From an uncultured Candidatus Saccharibacteria bacterium (GTDB lineage: Bacteria > Patescibacteriota > Saccharimonadia > Saccharimonadales > JALRHH01): DNA of 64,000 bases. A program made the translations under genes and the position numbers. Below, piece after piece: positions 9,321 to 52,851 of the stretch. The notes beneath the pieces were generated by a model. It had not been told where the DNA came from and ran no database searches. It saw only the letters and a program-made list of their open reading frames with translations. Location of the stretch: positions 66,423-130,422 of the forward strand of contig CAZLJP010000002.1 of the NCBI GenBank assembly GCA_964559915.1, read 5' to 3'. The number at the start of each line of letters is the position of its first letter. Position 1 is the stretch's first letter.

Positions 9321-9387
9321 AATTGATTTATTAACTTGACTTCAATACTAATTTGCTTAAACCTATTAATGTAAGGAGACATTATTT

Positions 9388-9601
9388 TATGAAAGTTCAA
9401 AAACAGGATGATGATACATATATTCTAACAATGGATGGTAGCGATGCAGGCATGATTATGTTGCTAATCAATGAAGCAGTGAACGGCTCAGAAGCATTTT
9501 CAGATGGGGTTTGGGATATGGTTGCCGATAATCCTCAGCCTCGCTTGCTCCAAATTGCTGAAAGTATATTTGAAGCACTACCTGAACCAGAAGAAGGTTA
9601 G
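9388..9601 (+). CDS. Hypothetical acidic small protein (70 aa)
   Basis: ATG preceded by TAAGGAGAC with 7-nt spacing. MKVQKQDDDTYILTMDGSDAGMIMLLINEAVNGSEAFSDGVWDMVADNPQPRLLQIAESIFEALPEPEEG. First gene after tRNA-Ser. Confidence 0.55.
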
Positions 9602-22720: not shown

Positions 22721-22909
22721 CTATTCGATTCCTAGTTCACGCCGTCTAGCAAAATCGTCTTGATACTCTATATGGTCTTTAACTAGCTCAGCGACTGCTT
22801 TAGCTGTTTCCAAAATACGAAATTCAAGCAATTCAATGCCTGATTCAACATTAGTAAATGTATCCTCTAGAACGATCTCTGAAGCGTTAGTTCGTTTTGA
22901 ATTTGTCAT
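22721..22909 (-). CDS. Hypothetical small protein (62 aa)
   Basis: ATG preceded by GAAAGG. Acidic, helical-looking product with no family recognised. Confidence 0.4.
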   Translation of the reverse strand: MTNSKRTNASEIVLEDTFTNVESGIELLEFRILETAKAVAELVKDHIEYQDDFARRRELGIE

Positions 22910-23102
22910 AAAACCTTTCGTTCTTTTGAACTCGTCAGTACAAACTCACATTTGTAGAGGTTAATGCAGGGGAGTAGTGTTCAGAAAGAAAGGATTCGCA
23001 TGCGCGATTCAATTCAGTCTTACTGACCACTCACCCTACATGCTCGGAATTTCCGAGGCTCTATTTGGTTACGGTCCAAACTACCATTCCTACAAGCGCC
23101 TG

Positions 23103-23285
23103 TTAGGCGACGTTCTTGGCCTGGGCGTCGGCGGGCATGTCGTTGGCGATGAGGCCGACGATGTGCTTGCGAAGCTCGTGGCGATGGGCAACATGCCTGA
23201 GCATCTCGGGTGTCAACCCAAATTCTTCGAGTTCTTCGATGAGCGCAAGCGCCTTGGAAGCGGCCATGGGGCTGGGACGAGCCAC
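23103..23285 (-). CDS. Orphan small protein, G/C-ending codon usage (locus E)
   Basis: GTG start 7 nt after GAGAGGA; 60 codons. By hand count, 46/60 codons end in G or C. Product VARPSPMAASKALALIEELEEFGLTPEMLRHVAHRHELRKHIVGLIANDMPADAQAKNVA. Confidence 0.55.
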   Translation of the reverse strand: MARPSPMAASKALALIEELEEFGLTPEMLRHVAHRHELRKHIVGLIANDMPADAQAKNVA

Positions 23286-23348
23286 GGGGGTTCCTCTCGT
23301 TGTAGGTTTCTTCCAAAGGAAGATATTCTGCGGAAACAGAATAAACAT

Positions 23349-23377
23349 ATTATACTAGTTTATATGTATAAAGTCAA
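23349..23377 (-). promoter_or_regulatory. Near-consensus sigma70-type promoter (TTGACT-17-TATAAT)
   Basis: On the minus strand, TTGACT is at 23377-23372 and TATAAT at 23354-23349 with a 17-nt spacer. It lies immediately after the stop of the 832-aa gene. Confidence 0.6.
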
Positions 23378-34508: not shown

Positions 34509-35597
34509 ATGGCAAAAATAATGCTCGTCGAGGACGACAATAACCTACGCGAAATTTATGAAGCACGGCTGTTGGCCGAAGGCTACGAAATTGTGGCTGC
34601 CAAAGATGGTGAAGAAGCGCTCGCTCTGGCTGTCAAGGAACGTCCTGATTTAATTATTTCTGATGTTATGATGCCAAAAATCAGCGGCTTTGACATGCTC
34701 GACATTCTGCGAAGCACCCCAGAGACCAAAGACACCAAAGTTATTATGATGACTGCGCTCAGCCAGGCAGAAGACAAGACCCGTGCCGACAAGCTTGGTG
34801 CCGACCGCTACCTTGTAAAATCACAGGTCACACTTGAGGATGTTGCCAAAGTTGCACACGATGTACTCACTGGCGAGAACAGTGCTGCAACACCACCAAT
34901 GGATTTGACGCCAGCTGCAGAGCAGCCAACAGTGACTCCTGCTGATGTAGTCACAGAACCGGCCGCACCAACAGAGCCTATTGCTACTGAGCCTGCTGCA
35001 GCACCGATTACAGACACCCCAGCACAAGATACATCAACACCAGCTGAGCCCACACCCATTGCAGTGACCGTAGATGAGCCAACCACACCTGTTGTAGCTG
35101 CTATTAACGATAATTTGAGCCAACCGATTGCCTCCGAAGAGGCAGAGGTTGCGTCACAGATTAATGCCGCTCTCGCATCCGATGATACAGCTACCGCAGA
35201 TGTACCTACTGAGACGCCAGCCGTTACACCTACTCCAAATGAAACAGCCACAGAGACTGCAATACCCGTATCAGTCGAAACAGAAGCACCAGCTGCGTCC
35301 GCCGAAGAACCAGCAGTAGTAGAACCGAGCGCTACACCAGAACCAGAATCGGTAGCAACGCCAGCCGCTGAACCCGTACCAGCAGCCCCCCAGGGCGACA
35401 AAAGAGTTATCCAGCCTATTAACGACGTTAAGGGACCGGATATCAACGAGTTACTCAAGCAAGAAGAAGCCAAGGAAGCCGCACCAGCTGCAGCTCCTGG
35501 CCAGCCATTGGACCCAGCTAAAGCCCATCAAGAAGAGCCAGCAGCTCCACCTGCTGCCCCTGGCACCAACATATCTCCGAACGATATTTCTCTCTAG
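34509..35597 (+). CDS. Response regulator receiver fused to a ~240-aa Pro/Ala/Thr/Glu-rich low-complexity tail
   Basis: The receiver contains MAKIMLVEDDNN, DLIISDVMMP, IMMTALS and YLVKS. The remainder is repetitive (TEPAAP, PTEPIATEPAAAP, ...). No recognisable DNA-binding output. Confidence 0.85.
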   Translation: MAKIMLVEDDNNLREIYEARLLAEGYEIVAAKDGEEALALAVKERPDLIISDVMMPKISGFDMLDILRSTPETKDTKVIMMTALSQAEDKTRADKLGADRYLVKSQVTLEDVAKVAHDVLTGENSAATPPMDLTPAAEQPTVTPADVVTEPAAPTEPIATEPAAAPITDTPAQDTSTPAEPTPIAVTVDEPTTPVVAAINDNLSQPIASEEAEVASQINAALASDDTATADVPTETPAVTPTPNETATETAIPVSVETEAPAASAEEPAVVEPSATPEPESVATPAAEPVPAAPQGDKRVIQPINDVKGPDINELLKQEEAKEAAPAAAPGQPLDPAKAHQEEPAAPPAAPGTNISPNDISL

Positions 35598-35615: not shown

Positions 35616-36278
35616 GTGAGACTCAATAAATTCATCGCTTTATCTACTGGTCTAAGCCGTCGGGCAGCCGATACGGCTATTGCTGATGGCCGCGTGCTGG
35701 TAAATGGCACTATTCCGACTACTGGGCATGCCGTTAGAGAAAGTGACACAGTGACCCTTGACGGCAGCGCCATTACACCCGCCGTCAAGACAACCATTAT
35801 GTTCAACAAACCTGCTGGCTATATAGTCAGCCGCGACGGGCAAGGGAATAAGACGATTTACGACCTCCTACCAGAGCAATATCACCACCTCAAGCCCGTT
35901 GGCAGACTTGATAAGTATTCTTCTGGATTATTGCTACTTACCAACGATGGCACACTCGCCAATGACCTGACGCATCCCAGCAAGGGCAAGTTCAAGCTTT
36001 ACGAGGTCAGACTCAATCATAGTCTCCAGCCGCTGCATCGACAGATGATTAGTGACCATGGCGTGCAGTTGGAAGACGGCCCCAGTAAATTTGAGCTAGA
36101 ACGCCTCAAAGATGGCAACGATAGCGATTGGATGGTGCGCATGAGCGAAGGCCGCAACCGCCAAATCAGGCGCACCTTTGATTCTTTGGGCTACTCTGTA
36201 GTAAAGCTGCACCGCATACAATTTGGCAGCCATACCATCGGTCAGCTTGCACCCGGCAAATTCAAAATCATTCCTTAG
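35616..36278 (+). CDS. Pseudouridine synthase, RsuA/RluB family
   Basis: GTG start. S4-like N-terminus MRLNKFIALSTGLSRRAAD. Catalytic motif GRLDKYSSGLLLLTNDG. Confidence 0.88.
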   Translation: MRLNKFIALSTGLSRRAADTAIADGRVLVNGTIPTTGHAVRESDTVTLDGSAITPAVKTTIMFNKPAGYIVSRDGQGNKTIYDLLPEQYHHLKPVGRLDKYSSGLLLLTNDGTLANDLTHPSKGKFKLYEVRLNHSLQPLHRQMISDHGVQLEDGPSKFELERLKDGNDSDWMVRMSEGRNRQIRRTFDSLGYSVVKLHRIQFGSHTIGQLAPGKFKIIP

Positions 36279-36411
36279 CCAAAAAATTCAAAATCTTGAA
36301 TGCTTTGGGAAAGTACAGAGAGGTTTGGTGGAGTAGAGCGGGAGGCGTGAGGAGTAAAAAAGCGTGTAGCTTCACCAGACAATTGTCTGTCTCCTCACGG
36401 CCGCCCCGATC

Positions 36412-36645
36412 TCACACCGTGCTGTGCTGCGTGGCCAAGGCCAACTGAGCTTCGAACGAGCGCGCCTGAGCGTTGTGCAACTCGGTGTCGGCCTGGGTCT
36501 GCTCAATCTTGAGCTGCTTCATCTTGACGCGACGGTCATGGATGTCATCAGCAATGAGCCACATGTAGGCGAAGAAGGCGGTAACAGCGCCACCAAACAA
36601 GTAGCCGATGCTCTTCACGATTGTGTCAATCAATTCCAGATTCAT
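36412..36645 (-). CDS. Orphan small membrane protein, G/C-ending codon usage (locus B)
   Basis: 77 aa from ATG 36645. One TM (SIGYLFGGAVTAFFAYMWLIA) is followed by a coiled-coil-like tail. About 60/77 codons end in G/C by hand count. Confidence 0.55.
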   Translation of the reverse strand: MNLELIDTIVKSIGYLFGGAVTAFFAYMWLIADDIHDRRVKMKQLKIEQTQADTELHNAQARSFEAQLALATQHSTV

Positions 36646-36696
36646 CCCGAGAACCTCTCTGTAGAAGTGCGAAAATCCGATTGGAAATTCATGCAT

Positions 36697-36725
36697 ACTA
36701 TACAACTTTTAGATTATTATTTCAA
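36697..36725 (-). promoter_or_regulatory. sigma70-type promoter (TTGAAA-17-TATAGT) for locus B
   Basis: On the minus strand, the -35 box is at 36725-36720 and the -10 box at 36702-36697. Confidence 0.5.
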
Positions 36726-36877
36726 CAAACAAAAACTCCCACTGCTGGCGGGAGTTTACTTTCTGGATAAAAGAGAAAGAGTGGCGTGATGGTGGGTATG
36801 GGTGCGTAAAACGCGGGAGGGGTGGAACACTCAAGTGTTACTGTGTGCTCAACACCCCTCGTACCACCGCCAAGCAG

Positions 36878-37096
36878 TCATGTTTGATGCAAATCACGAA
36901 GCAAATCATGCCAGCCGCCGACCAGAGCGTCGATGATTACGTAGGCCCAGCCTAGCGGGAACAGAAACGTCATCACTCTGCGAGCCCTGTCGCTCAAAGC
37001 AACCTCCACGTTCCTCAGCATGAGCCAGGGACAAATGTAGGCAACCGAAAGTGCAACAGCACATTCGACGGGATACTGTGCAATGTATTCGAACAT
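36878..37096 (-). CDS. Orphan small membrane protein (locus C)
   Basis: 72 aa with two hydrophobic helices. Codon usage is ordinary (about 60% G/C-ending by hand count). The upstream AGAGTGAG resembles the sequence upstream of locus D. Confidence 0.5.
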   Translation of the reverse strand: MFEYIAQYPVECAVALSVAYICPWLMLRNVEVALSDRARRVMTFLFPLGWAYVIIDALVGGWHDLLRDLHQT

Positions 37097-37146
37097 CGCT
37101 CACTCTTTCTCTAGAGTTGAAATCGTACAGTACGAAATCAAGTATT

Positions 37147-37175
37147 GTTATACCAGATTTATATAACTTTAGCAA
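37147..37175 (-). promoter_or_regulatory. sigma70-type promoter (TTGCTA-17-TATAAC) for locus C
   Basis: On the minus strand, the -35 box is at 37175-37170 and the -10 box at 37152-37147. Confidence 0.4.
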
Positions 37176-37354
37176 TGTTGGGTTTAGAAACAAAAAAGAC
37201 TCCTGCAAAAGCACAGAAGCCCGGATACATACATGGATAATAACAGAGTGAGGGAAGTGTGGAGGAGAAAAGTAGAGGCAAGCCTCGATACGTTTCTGCC
37301 GCCAGGCAAGGGGTGCGAGCACACTGCGTAAGCTATGCTCACACCCCTTGGAGC

Positions 37355-37603
37355 CTACGCGCGGCGGTATGCAGCCAGGTAGTTCGGGTTGATAGCGCAG
37401 CGCGCAATCACCAAGAAACCAACCGGCCACAACAGTGCCTGAACCACGCGGCGATGCCATTTCATTGTGGGGAGTGTCATCTTCAGCAGAATCAGCATCA
37501 GGAGCGTCAACGACGTCCAGACGAAGTGGTCTACGACGAACTCGCCGACGTAGAGCAACGCATCAATGACATTCAGCAACATATGGATGGGGAAGGATTC
37601 CAT
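37355..37603 (-). CDS. Orphan small membrane protein, G/C-ending codon usage (locus D)
   Basis: 82 aa from ATG 37603 with two to three hydrophobic helices. About 63/82 codons end in G/C by hand count. It is followed by a 14/15-bp hairpin at 37307-37350. Confidence 0.55.
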   Translation of the reverse strand: MESFPIHMLLNVIDALLYVGEFVVDHFVWTSLTLLMLILLKMTLPTMKWHRRVVQALLWPVGFLVIARCAINPNYLAAYRRA

Positions 37604-37657
37604 GTCACTCACTCTCACTCTGTTAATAGAATCTCCAATCTGGAAACTCAGTATATT

Positions 37658-37686
37658 ATTATAGCAAAAAACTGTGCTCTTGTCAA
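37658..37686 (-). promoter_or_regulatory. Consensus sigma70-type promoter (TTGACA-17-TATAAT) for locus D
   Basis: On the minus strand, TTGACA is at 37686-37681 and TATAAT at 37663-37658. Confidence 0.7.
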
Positions 37687-37708
37687 TATCTACTACCTCT
37701 GTTATACT
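37680..37708 (+). promoter_or_regulatory. der promoter (TTGTCA-17-TATACT), -35 overlapping the divergent locus D -35
   Basis: TTGTCA is at 37680-37685 and TATACT at 37703-37708. The der ATG lies only 7 nt after the -10 box. Confidence 0.6.
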
Positions 37709-37715
37709 AGAGGCA

Positions 37716-39131
37716 ATGAGTAAGAAATTACCAATAGTTGCAATTGTCGGTAGAGCAAACGTCGGCAAGTCCAGCCTGTTCAACGAAATTCTCGGTGAAC
37801 GGGAAGCTATCGTGGCCCGCGAAGCTGGTACCACGCGTGATTCGCTGTGGGCCAGGGCAGAGCACAACGAACAGCAGTTCTGGCTGATAGATACCGCTGG
37901 CATGAAGGACGCTGAAGACGATTTCGAGCTTACAATTCAGGAGCAGATTGGAGAGGCCGCAGACGCTGCAGATGTTATTTGGGTCGTGGTTGAGGCTGAT
38001 ATACCAATCACCGAAGAAGATCGCCGTGTGGCAACTATGGCGCTCAAAACTCGTAAGCCTGTCATGCTGGTGGTCAACAAGGCCGATAAAGCCAAGCGAG
38101 CAAAAACTGAGGACTACCAACGCCTGGGTATCAAACCCATCTTCCTGACCAGTACCACGCAGCACAGTGGTGTAATTGCGCTGCTTGATGAGCTGACAAC
38201 TATCATCCCCAAGGCTTTTGAGCATCAACCAGACAATGTCCTGCGCATTGCGCTGCTGGGCCGGCCAAATGTTGGTAAATCACATCTCTTTAACTCCTTA
38301 GCAAAGAAACAGCAGGCCATCGTCGCAGACCGCGCCGGCACCACTAGGGACGTCAATCGTACGGGCGTACGCTTTGAAAAGCAAGATATCGAGCTACTAG
38401 ACACGGCTGGTATTCGCCGTAGCGGCAAAATAGAGAAGGGCATAGAACAGTTTAGTGTTATCCGTAGCCTCGCAGCCATTGAACAGGCTGATGTCTGTTT
38501 GCTATTGATGGATGTAAATGAGCTAAACACTGGGCTGGACCAAAAAATTGCCGGCATGATTAAAGAAGCAGGCAAAGGCCTCATACTAGTAGTAAGCAAG
38601 TGGGACAGTGCCGAAAAAGACGCCTACACGCGCGATCAGCTGGCTCCGCAGATTCGCGATACCTATGACTTCGTGCCGTGGGCACCACTGATTTTTACCT
38701 CTGCAGTTACCGGCCAAAATGTAACCAAATTATTTGAGCTCGCGCTCGAGATTTATACCAGCCGCCATAAGCACGTCAAGACAACTGACCTAAATCGTTG
38801 GTTGCGTGAAATCGTTGATAAACACCCTCCTGCTGGGCTCAAAAACCGCATGCCTAAGCTCAACTACATCATGCAAGAAGAGGGTGGCGACGCGCCTAAT
38901 TTCAAGATATATGGTTCACACACCAAGCTACTGCACTGGAGCTACAAGCGCTATATGGAACGCGAACTACGCGAGAAATATGGCTTTGAAGGTACCGCAA
39001 TCAAGTTCTGGTTCTTTGAAAAACACGTTACGCACAAACACGGCGTTTCACCCACAAAGACAACCAACTCAGCCTTGCAACGCTACAACGCCAAAAAGCG
39101 CAACTGGAGCAAGCGACAGGAGGAAGTGTAG
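37716..39131 (+). CDS. der: Ribosome-associated GTPase Der (EngA)
   Basis: Two tandem GTPase domains (GRANVGKSSLFN...DTAG...NKAD and GRPNVGKSHLFN...DTAG...SKWD) and a KH-like C-terminus. Start at MSKKLPIVAIVG. Confidence 0.93.
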   Translation: MSKKLPIVAIVGRANVGKSSLFNEILGEREAIVAREAGTTRDSLWARAEHNEQQFWLIDTAGMKDAEDDFELTIQEQIGEAADAADVIWVVVEADIPITEEDRRVATMALKTRKPVMLVVNKADKAKRAKTEDYQRLGIKPIFLTSTTQHSGVIALLDELTTIIPKAFEHQPDNVLRIALLGRPNVGKSHLFNSLAKKQQAIVADRAGTTRDVNRTGVRFEKQDIELLDTAGIRRSGKIEKGIEQFSVIRSLAAIEQADVCLLLMDVNELNTGLDQKIAGMIKEAGKGLILVVSKWDSAEKDAYTRDQLAPQIRDTYDFVPWAPLIFTSAVTGQNVTKLFELALEIYTSRHKHVKTTDLNRWLREIVDKHPPAGLKNRMPKLNYIMQEEGGDAPNFKIYGSHTKLLHWSYKRYMERELREKYGFEGTAIKFWFFEKHVTHKHGVSPTKTTNSALQRYNAKKRNWSKRQEEV

Positions 39132-39763
39132 TGGCACTGTTTCAAAAACGACCAGATGCTTCTTCTTATTTGCCCGTATACAGTCTAGCCCTTACCAGGA
39201 CGCTGCTCATTGTGGGTCTGGGGAATGTTGGCAAAAAGTACGACGGCACACGGCATAATATTGGCTTTGCGGCGCTGGATGAATTGGCGCACAGGCAGAG
39301 TTTTGACCCCTGGATAGAGAAAAAGGACCTTAAATGCCTGTTTACCAGCCAAACGATTGGTGAGAGCCGCGTCATACTTATTAAACCAACTACATTTATG
39401 AATCTCAGCGGCGAAGCCGTCCAAGCCACTATGCATTTCTATAAAATTCCGCTTAACCAAGTATTGGCAGTGCACGACGATCTTGATATTCCATTTGGCC
39501 AGATTCGCACCCGTATAGGCGGTAGTAGCGCAGGGCATAACGGTATCAAATCAATCTCACAGCACCTGGGCGAAGAATACGGCCGTGTACGCATTGGTGT
39601 GGGCGCAGAAACGCCTATGGACACCAGCGACTTTGTGCTCGCCAAGTTTAGTACGGATGAAAAGGCCGAGCAATCGGCTCTACTCAAAGAAACGACCGCC
39701 ATTTTGACGGAATACATCCATGGCGGTCAGTTACTTGCGGAAACCCGCAGCTTCCTTATATAG
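39131..39763 (+). CDS. pth: Peptidyl-tRNA hydrolase
   Basis: LIVGLGNVGKKYDGTRHNIGF, VHDDLDIPFG and GHNGIKS. The GTG start overlapping the der stop is plausible but uncertain. Confidence 0.88.
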   Translation: MALFQKRPDASSYLPVYSLALTRTLLIVGLGNVGKKYDGTRHNIGFAALDELAHRQSFDPWIEKKDLKCLFTSQTIGESRVILIKPTTFMNLSGEAVQATMHFYKIPLNQVLAVHDDLDIPFGQIRTRIGGSSAGHNGIKSISQHLGEEYGRVRIGVGAETPMDTSDFVLAKFSTDEKAEQSALLKETTAILTEYIHGGQLLAETRSFLI

Positions 39764-40064
39764 TTGGCTGTGAAGCCTGTTTCATAATAAGTTCGAGGTG
39801 TTCATCTGGACACAAGTCAAAGACTCTGGTCGCAAAGCCTCCAAGACTAGCTGCTCGAATCTGACTTTTGCGAACTCTACCAATAATCTCTGCGTTATTA
39901 CCCGCAAAGGCAATCTGATGAATACTGATATCAGTTATCTTGCCAGCTACATCACTAAAAGCAACCGCAACATCTAGTGCATCGGCTACTGGTATGGCCT
40001 CGGGAACATCAAATTCTAGTCGTTCCTCTGGGCTAAATATAATTATGTCTTTATCGCGTTGCAT
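39756..40064 (-). CDS. Hypothetical protein (102 aa)
   Basis: ATG 40064 is preceded by GAAAGG. Codon usage is A/T-ending. The track start at 40127 falls inside a terminator hairpin and is rejected. Confidence 0.5.
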   Translation of the reverse strand: MQRDKDIIIFSPEERLEFDVPEAIPVADALDVAVAFSDVAGKITDISIHQIAFAGNNAEIIGRVRKSQIRAASLGGFATRVFDLCPDEHLELIMKQASQPTI

Positions 40065-40100
40065 ACAAGCCTTTCTTGTCATTTCATTATACTCTGAATG

Positions 40101-40143
40101 AAAAGAGCTCACAGAGGGGGTGGGCACCGCTGTGAGCTCTTTT
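40101..40143. terminator. Strong bidirectional terminator hairpin
   Basis: AAAAGAGCTCACAG (40101-40114) pairs perfectly with CTGTGAGCTCTTTT (40130-40143) around a 15-nt loop. Confidence 0.8.
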
Positions 40144-40420
40144 CACCCTTCAACCCACCCGAGCGAAACATCAACGTCCTATAGATTACGGACTTGTGTC
40201 TCTCGCCGAAGCAAGAACCGTCTAGGCTCGCTTTGAATTCGGGAGTTAAAGGGGTTAGTTTGTTTTAGAACGTTTATTCCCGAAGGAGTAAAGCAAGAAA
40301 TAAGTGGAGGGTAACAACTTAAGGCTCGGCGCGCTCTAAAACAATCTAACAATCCACCCAAGGGGTGAAGAGTTAAAATGGGGGTTATAAGGTGCAAAAA
40401 CGCGTATACCACGTTTACAG
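40144..40420 (-). ncRNA. Candidate non-coding RNA or cis-regulatory leader (~320 nt transcript including the terminator)
   Basis: It is bounded by a consensus promoter (40455-40427) and the terminator at 40143-40101. No credible ORF. It contains two C(UUCG)G-type hairpins and an 8-bp helix GTTTTAGA/TCTAAAAC (40262-69 with 40334-41). Confidence 0.4.
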
Positions 40421-52621: not shown

Positions 52622-52851
52622 CCAGATGTTTTGTGCTTGAGCCAGTTTTCGTTTTTATCCGACATGGTCTCCCTTTTGGCTGCAAGCGGGCTTAGCCCGC
52701 TTCACAGCAATAGGCACGATCTCGGAACGCAAGCAAGCCGTACGTTTGGTACGGTGAGTGCGTACCGTAAGGATAAAGGCGGAAAATGGTCAAGAAGGCA
52801 GCGGGCTGCGAGCTTTGCTCGTAGACAGGCTGGCTGCCACAAAACATCTGG
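52622..52851. repeat. 230-bp structured element bounded by a 14-bp perfect inverted repeat, in the ftsL-ftsI spacer
   Basis: CCAGATGTTTTGTG (52622-52635) is the exact reverse complement of CACAAAACATCTGG (52838-52851). The helix is extended by AGCCAG/CTGGCT after a small internal loop. The interior has several further stems. Confidence 0.8.

Follow-up and report, generated by a model that had tools for sequence, protein, structure and literature searches.

In the hok and aapA systems, pairing of the 5' end with the 3' end makes the mRNA stable and untranslatable, and slow trimming of the 3' end frees a translatable form (PMC9841398; PMC6733600). These long-distance interactions, known as tac/fbi in hok, keep the full-length mRNA silent until 3' processing, while transient local hairpins block co-transcriptional translation (PMC9841398; PMC6733600); the metastable structures of aapA3 likewise hide the Shine-Dalgarno (SD) sequence and AUG in the nascent RNA (PMC6733600). 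In T1TAdb, what defines a type I toxin-antitoxin (TA) system is that its antitoxin is an antisense RNA pairing with the mRNA of the toxin (PMC8594479). The toxin of such a system is a small protein, as a rule hydrophobic, that is made from a stable mRNA and halts growth or kills when expressed alone. Here, three small neighbouring genes, B, C, and D, are described from a 64,000-nucleotide (nt) stretch (hereafter the window) of contig CAZLJP010000002.1 of an uncultured Candidatus Saccharibacteria bacterium, where they form an islet between an rluB-like gene and der. With a probability of roughly 60%, they are translationally self-locked one-gene cassettes for small membrane-active orphan proteins, and they appear to be best explained as the hok/aapA principle in a new variant, in a bacterium of the Candidate Phyla Radiation (CPR).

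Like hok/Sok, the three cassettes are predicted to have an mRNA of about 400 nt whose 5' and 3' untranslated regions (UTRs) close on each other, a hidden ribosome-binding site (RBS), and a small membrane protein as product; activation by slow 3' processing would be expected for them as well (PMC9841398). Unlike hok/Sok, they have neither a mok-like leader open reading frame (ORF) nor a Sok-like antisense promoter, a large G+C hairpin separates their stop codon from the 3' arm, and they show no sequence or family relation to that system. Their proteins have 72-82 amino acids (aa) as compared with about 50 aa for Hok, and their host is a CPR bacterium. With aapA/IsoA of Helicobacter and other Epsilonproteobacteria they share an anti-SD sequence near the 3' end, local hairpins over the SD, and the occurrence of several tandem or dispersed copies (PMC6733600). 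However, aapA has an mRNA of about 225 nt, peptides of 30 aa, and an essential IsoA antisense RNA, whereas the B, C, and D mRNAs would be twice as long, encode larger unrelated proteins, and have no evident antisense gene.

Predicted architecture of the three transcripts

A first reading of the window made from its letters (the sequence-only reading) had described three minus-strand ORFs of 77, 72, and 82 codons, each with its own sigma70-like promoter with a 17-nt spacer, and this description held. The ORFs are present, the promoters of D and B were recovered by a promoter scan, that of C was seen in the sequence (it was unlisted by the scan solely for the C at position 6 of its -10 box), and the genes are three independent units. 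In every one of them (Table 1), a promoter is followed by a 5' hairpin, an arm, the ORF, a G+C hairpin, the complementary arm, and a terminator. The predicted transcripts measure 413-464 nt from start to terminator, with starts expected near 37651, 37137, and 36690 and ends near 37190, 36727, and 36272 for D, C, and B, respectively. The three promoter-like matches in 3 kb are not above chance (2.8±1.6 in shuffles); the significance of the promoters is in their placement, not in their number. The two G/C-rich hairpins that had been placed behind C and D are real, very stable, and without a U-tract, but neither the genes nor the predicted transcripts end there: the T-run terminators sit 60-110 nt beyond the G+C hairpins in C and D, with a weak one after B. 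The rluB-like gene, with its stop at 36278, ends in convergent orientation to the terminator-like hairpin of B. Nucleotide alignment of the three units showed no homology except in the promoter and the leader layout, and C and D were rejected as paralogues on comparison.

In each gene, 12-18 nt at the ribosome-binding region match by complementarity a pyrimidine stretch of the gene's own 3' UTR, the main feature of the islet and one that the sequence-only reading does not mention. This stretch lies between the G+C hairpin and the terminator, and its partner is the purine-rich segment just before the start codon. The arms are exact inverted repeats in B and C; in D, 37614-37628 is complementary to 37238-37252 at 14 of 15 positions, widening to 18 pairs. 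Shuffling of the 3' UTR rarely gave a 12-nt complement (counts in Table 1; p ~5e-5, 3e-4, and 4e-4 for B, C, and D, respectively), and arms at the same relative position in three neighbouring genes are not due to chance. A detector run over the whole 64 kb returned such RBS-to-3'UTR arms in B, C, and D only, besides two matches without an SD. The string AGAGTGAG, reported earlier as common to the upstream regions of C and D, was found four times in the window, every copy inside the islet, and is part of the arms; on the plus strand, the copy at 37245-37252 complements the 3' arm of D. The cassettes could not be told from other ORFs by RNAduplex energies of leader against 3' UTR, for which the mean background was as high as -22 kcal/mol, and detection rests on exact complements. 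An origin of the islet repeats as an integron attC site, a CRISPR array, or a tandem repeat found no support.

Both the minimum free energy and the centroid folds of all three whole transcripts hold a long-range 5'-3' helix, with whole-transcript z-scores of -5.3, -3.7, and -3.6 for the three cassettes. This helix has a pair probability of ~1.0, and unpaired states make up 6-23% in the SD-AUG region. The complete transcript is therefore predicted to close on itself by the 5'-3' helix and to bury the SD region; in these models, B, C, and D show the 5'-3' pairing sequestering the SD that is a feature of the hok/aapA subtype. In the nascent and 3'-shortened RNAs, the SD and AUG are still within weaker local hairpins, and computed removal of the 3' end frees the SD only in part. 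Overall, the RNA architecture is computationally well supported, and the activation step and the function of the proteins are what we infer beyond it.

The leaders of B, C, and D are 41-48 nt long, structured, and SD-bearing. At least 12 of 40 ordinary genes in the window lack an SD and carry their -10 box 7-10 nt ahead of the ATG, which suggests that most genes of this genome are leaderless. The leaders of B, C, and D are special since most window genes look leaderless. Such boxes, of the form TATAAT, TATACT, or TACAAT and with their last nt 7-10 nt from the ATG, were seen in many genes, for example upstream of 2089, 9144(-), 11750, 18085(-), 25877(-), 37716, 41647, 58788, 60669(-), and 61254(-).

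Table 1. Positions in the window of the elements of cassettes D, C, and B, of the genes on either side, and of the hammerhead unit; nt of the D transcript are counted from its predicted start near 37651.
Feature	Position	Strand	Evidence or remark
Promoter D, TTGACA-17-TATAAT, extended -10 TG	37658-37686	-	Promoter scan, 12/12
D mRNA 5'-terminal hairpin, transcript nt 3-23	37629-37649	-	Folding
D 5' arm AGAGUGAGAGUGAG, purine-rich ribosome-binding region, pairs with 37238-37259	37610-37628	-	Core 12 bp, pair probability 0.9-1.0
ORF D, 82 aa, 2-3 predicted transmembrane helices, orphan	37355-37603	-	GC3 0.77
D G+C-rich hairpin, 4 nt past the stop codon	37307-37350	-	-32.2 kcal/mol, z -6.4
D 3' arm (anti-RBS, CUCACUCUGUUAUUA...), complement of 37610-37628	37238-37259	-	Shuffles 8/20000
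D intrinsic terminator, 10-bp stem and U-tract	37188-37222 (hairpin 37222-37197)	-	
Promoter C, TTGCTA-17-TATAAC, TGg in front (extended -10)	37147-37175	-	Read by eye
C mRNA 5'-terminal hairpin	37123-37135	-	Folding
C 5' arm AGAGAAAGAGUG, ends 5 nt before AUG, pairs with 36772-36783	37101-37112	-	Probability ~1.0
ORF C, 72 aa, 2 predicted transmembrane helices, orphan	36878-37096	-	GC3 0.59
C G+C-rich hairpin past the stop codon	36817-36860	-	-23.5 kcal/mol, z -4.4
C 3' arm CACUCUUUCUCU, 12/12 complement of C 5' arm	36772-36783	-	Shuffles 6/20000
C intrinsic terminator	36726-36757 (hairpin 36757-36733)	-	
Promoter B, TTGAAA-17-TATAGT	36697-36725	-	Promoter scan
B mRNA 5'-terminal hairpin; first 12 nt GAAUUUCCAAUC similar to D leader GAGUUUCCAGAU	36671-36690	-	
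B 5' arm UACAGAGAGGUU, holds the SD GAGG, pairs with 36314-36325	36652-36663	-	Shuffles 1/20000
ORF B, 77 aa, one N-terminal transmembrane helix and polar helical tail, orphan	36412-36645	-	GC3 0.77
B branched G+C-rich hairpin, immediately past the stop codon	36336-36411	-	-37.3 kcal/mol
B 3' arm AACCUCUCUGUA, 12/12 complement of B 5' arm	36314-36325	-	
B weak A/U-rich terminator-like hairpin and U-run	36274-36313	-	z only -2.1
rluB-like pseudouridine synthase gene	35616-36278	+	Neighbour of the islet
der	37716-39131	+	Other flank of the islet
Type III hammerhead, CUGACGA...GAAA core, GUGA and AAAA loops	22912-22962	-	Predicted cut after C22957
Cassette-like unit, TTGACT-17-TATAAT promoter at 23347-23375, two leader hairpins	22957-23375	-	

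Coding signal and protein products

The G/C-ending codons noticed earlier in B and D stand out in numbers: the G+C content at third codon positions (GC3) is 0.77 in both, and 0.59 in C, as compared with 0.48±0.05 in 41 long ORFs of the genome. The GC signal of period 3 is strong in B (p=7e-7) and D (p=1.4e-7) and marginal in C (p=0.035). Since the codon-position GC periodicity reaches p ~1e-7, the frames proposed for B and D carry a real coding signal. Preferential pairing of third codon positions was unsupported as a source of the GC3 richness. GC3-rich ORFs had arms in 3 of 18 cases and other ORFs in 7 of 314, an enrichment that is only indicative since length-greedy gene calling chose shadow ORFs over B, C, and D.

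By a hydropathy scan, B has a single predicted transmembrane (TM) segment, at residues 13-31, and its C-terminal half is polar, whereas C has two such segments and D two to three; the earlier description of all three products as hydrophobic holds for C and D but only in part for B. In 5.8 billion clustered protein sequences, B, C, and D have no homologues but themselves, and none was found for B when 1.84 billion representatives were scanned exhaustively with HMMER. No family was found for any of them in Pfam, NCBIfam, or PHROGs, and Rfam was likewise empty; B has a weak match (E=4e-4) to phrog_23844, of unknown function. An apparent match of C in L053 (sequences compared with the window are numbered L002 and upward) was rejected as a chance GWHDLLRD word within a 197-aa phage protein.

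The rluB-der junction

The der product of the window is 84-86% identical to Der of metagenome-assembled genomes (MAGs) of uncultured Saccharibacteria, and bulk GC, at ~48%, is flat across the B-C-D region. The adjacency of rluB and der is kept in about 45 Saccharibacteria loci; across L002-L052, however, the spacer between them is about 25 nt at its shortest and 3.9 kb at its longest, and its cargo is unrelated between genomes, including aspartate kinase, folP, and, in L009, a transposase-like gene, besides many unknown proteins. The rluB-der junction is a hypervariable genomic hotspot. The B, C, and D genes have no copy in the relatives examined at this junction, including the nearest ones (L002, L003, and L047), and their sequences are present on two contigs, both from the same organism, for which a Logan contig derives from run SRR8931242. 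Since the spacer is variable and the nearest relatives are without B, C, and D, the islet is strain-specific content of the hotspot and looks acquired or in rapid turnover, which agrees with the acquired islet of the sequence-only reading and answers the presence/absence comparison proposed there. No arms like those of B, C, and D were found in eight other rluB-der spacers searched; therefore, the hotspot is without such cassettes in some genomes.

The D and der promoters are divergent, with their -35 boxes back-to-back in one near-palindromic region (window 37658-37708). The boxes overlap, TTGACA on the minus strand at 37686-37681 and TTGTCA of der on the plus strand at 37680-37685, and binding of RNA polymerase to the D promoter and to the der promoter may be mutually exclusive.

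Related cassettes and hammerhead ribozymes

In other Saccharibacteria, the cassette layout is seen again with orphan ORFs that are unrelated and mostly rich in GC3, and a broader class of Saccharibacterial cassettes, as yet undescribed, probably includes B, C, and D. In L045, the same rluB-der gap holds, on the minus strand, a promoter, a 5' hairpin, an arm (AACCAGGAGGAAG), an ORF, a G+C hairpin, a complementary arm, and a terminator; the arms are 13 nt long and include AGGAGG, and the ORF encodes 89 aa with a GC3 of 0.76. L003 has two cassettes (L003a and L003b) with arms of 14 nt each, and L019, L024, L006, and L052 have one apiece, that of L052 with a z-score of -9.4. The GC3 of the cassette ORFs is 0.76-0.81 in L006, L019, L024, and L045 but just 0.57 in L003b. 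None of eight related-cassette proteins tested belongs to a known family. Perfect SD-containing arms of at least 12 nt occurred five times with the SD upstream and not once in the reversed orientation, and a good sense promoter is present in 7 of 10 cassettes. L045 holds the 27-mer CTGCGCGCGGAGCAAAGCTCGTGCTCG as an inverted repeat (9343-9369 / 9541-9567), and L046 has it as well (~8300); it is a repeat element common to two MAGs.

Both units of L003 and those of L019 and L052 have, past the 3' arm, a type III hammerhead in place of a terminator. These units, together with window 22912-23375, end in a hammerhead with a CUGANGA...GAAA core and in this resemble the type III hammerheads at bacterial and phage gene ends; unlike them, B, C, and D end in intrinsic terminators, and no hammerhead core was found in the three cassettes. 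In the hammerhead of the window, which has three stems with stem III open, the type III core is present as C3-U4-G5-A6-N7-G8-A9 and G12-A13-A14, and cleavage is predicted. When it was aligned with those of L003 (11902-11952) and L019 (12820-12870), the three stems were paired in all (48/48 cells), with a compensatory change on both sides in 8 of 16 pairs; the hammerheads score below the Rfam gathering threshold. The unit that precedes it, probably the one named locus A in the sequence-only reading, has a small soluble ORF at 23103-23282 with a GC3 of 0.70 and a likely GTG start, after which the hammerhead follows, and its 5'-3' pairing is weak. Next past the hammerhead is an ORF (22721-22909) very rich in A and T at third codon positions (GC3 0.25).

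The hammerhead core CTGATGAGNCCAAAAGGNCGAAA was also seen in 105 viral-contig stretches of IMG/VR (L054-L157, e.g. L092, L157, L148, L079, and L081). Several of these have an apparent second copy of the stem-I palindrome ~1.05-1.1 kb upstream, and the doubled hammerheads may represent tandem hammerheads or assemblies of circular RNA.

Proposed mechanism and alternatives

The scheme favoured for B, C, and D can be described as follows. The sigma-70-type promoter of each cassette would give a separate mRNA of ~415-465 nt with the fixed layout, and by analogy with hok and aapA the full-length RNA would be a stable, translationally silent store. Translation would need the 3' arm to be removed or opened, most simply by 3' exonucleolytic trimming, which by the same analogy may halt at the strong post-stop G+C hairpin. 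The proteins would then appear late and in small amounts, and may act in a toxin-like manner on the membrane. The cassette type would be a recurrent one, with unrelated, mostly GC3-rich orphans at variable genome spots, some units ending in a hammerhead. In a broader proposal, offered tentatively and with less confidence than the scheme itself, Saccharibacteria carry an undescribed class of closed-loop cassettes, a fast-turnover accessory pool in hotspots, each made of a promoter of its own, a hairpin at the 5' end, an orphan and mostly GC3-rich ORF, a strong post-stop hairpin, an arm back to the leader or RBS, and a terminator or hammerhead; translation in this class would be timed by RNA end-processing with no antisense partner, and B, C, and D would be a tandem triple.

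Several points weigh against self-locked cassettes for membrane-active proteins. Where the B, C, and D transcripts start and end is predicted from consensus motifs, the SD motif of C and D (GAGUGAG) is weak, and orphan status blocks both a purifying-selection test on the ORFs and a covariation test of the arms. As to the products, B is only partly hydrophobic, all three are longer than most type I toxins, and those of L045 and L003b are soluble, so that a membrane toxin is not the general cargo. A consensus scan found no antisense promoter of at least 9/12 opposite the 5' half of the 10 cassettes. In L003a and L052, the 5' arm is upstream of the SD and does not cover it; therefore, end-pairing for RNA stability could be the primary role.

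The antisense scan bears first on the possibility that B, C, and D are complete type I TA loci, each with an antisense RNA antitoxin, in a tandem array such as those of ldr, hok, or aapA. The mRNA design is that of hok/aapA, the ORFs are small and hydrophobic, the tandem array lies in a variable region, and the nascent transcripts keep the SD hidden as in aapA3. Nevertheless, this appears unlikely, since the opposite-strand site is missing in all ten cassettes, B, C, and D match neither the Hok/Gef Pfam family nor the Rfam hok/sok or related models, no antitoxin of Rfam matches at the locus, the usual toxin is below 60 aa, and related cassettes encode soluble proteins. Because of the lack of a family match, the larger proteins, and the lack of an antisense promoter, we would not class the locus as a type I TA system; it would resemble only the toxin half in its working. 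The earlier suggestion of an acquired islet of toxin-like membrane peptides is partly supported, the toxin-like reading gaining support from the mRNA architecture.

It is likewise doubtful that the 5'-3' pairing mainly guards the mRNA ends in a tiny, ribosome-poor cell, with no gating of translation and with ordinary accessory membrane or surface proteins (host-interaction or phage-exclusion) as products. Besides the arm position in L003a and L052, this would fit the heterogeneous cargo, soluble proteins included, and the typical stabilisers of every cassette, namely a 5'-terminal hairpin and a 3' hairpin or ribozyme-made end. However, the arms of B, C, D, L045, L003b, L019, and L024 cover the SD and end 5-7 nt before the start codon, and local backup hairpins over the SD and AUG would be needless if stability were the sole purpose.

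A quite improbable alternative derives the islet from a prophage or mobile element, as what is left of it with moron or lysis-type genes, C and D being holin-like and B a membrane-anchored coiled-coil protein. As in phage morons and holins, the genes are small and accessory with a private promoter and terminator each, and the 2-3 TM segments of C and D are like those of class II holins; the hotspot holds a transposase-like gene and other unrelated cargo elsewhere, B has its weak PHROGs match, and hammerhead cores like those beside related cassettes are common in IMG/VR contigs. Unlike morons and holins, B, C, and D have no phage context: no integrase, endolysin, or structural gene is nearby, the neighbours being the rluB-like gene and der, no holin family of Pfam or PHROGs is matched, and IMG/VR, INPHARED, and PLSDB gave no DNA or protein match for the islet. 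The holin-like character and the actinobacterial or phage origin considered in the sequence-only reading consequently found no backing in these searches.

It is very improbable that the ORFs are chance, untranslated frames in structured non-coding RNAs or decaying pseudogenes, as the orphan status of all three, the unusually structured RNAs, and the weak periodicity of C might suggest, since the GC periodicity by codon position is strong in B and D and falls in just the frame proposed, the products hold hydrophobic stretches of TM length, the start codons lie 5-9 nt past purine-rich SD-like motifs, and no Rfam family is matched.

Other features of the window

A perfect 14-nt inverted repeat (52622-52635 / 52838-52851) with arms 202 nt apart lies in an intergenic region upstream of an FtsL-like small gene, with strong hairpins between the arms, and the region 52622-52851 may be a structured RNA. 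Adjoining pth is a compositionally odd unit, a minus-strand ORF of 123 aa (39756-40127) with an unusually low GC3 of 0.32, after which a very strong 19-bp hairpin (40085-40160, -33 kcal/mol) follows. At 34509-35597, a response-regulator receiver domain is joined to a low-complexity tail of ~240 aa rich in Pro, Thr, Ala, and Glu.

Implications for Saccharibacteria

In the literature searched, no paper ties Saccharibacteria to type I TA systems or to hammerhead ribozymes. If translationally self-locked cassettes are the correct explanation of B, C, and D, they would be, to our knowledge, the first case of hok/aapA-style mRNA self-locking in the CPR. The complement between the RBS and the 3' UTR, together with the post-stop G+C hairpin, would then be a signature, readable from sequence, for regulated orphan genes in ultra-small epibionts. 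Two RNA devices, a long-distance translational lock and a 3'-end-forming hammerhead, would be joined in one cassette type. The organism has very few annotated effectors, and its strain-specific small membrane proteins would be candidates for host killing, self-poisoning, or phage defence.

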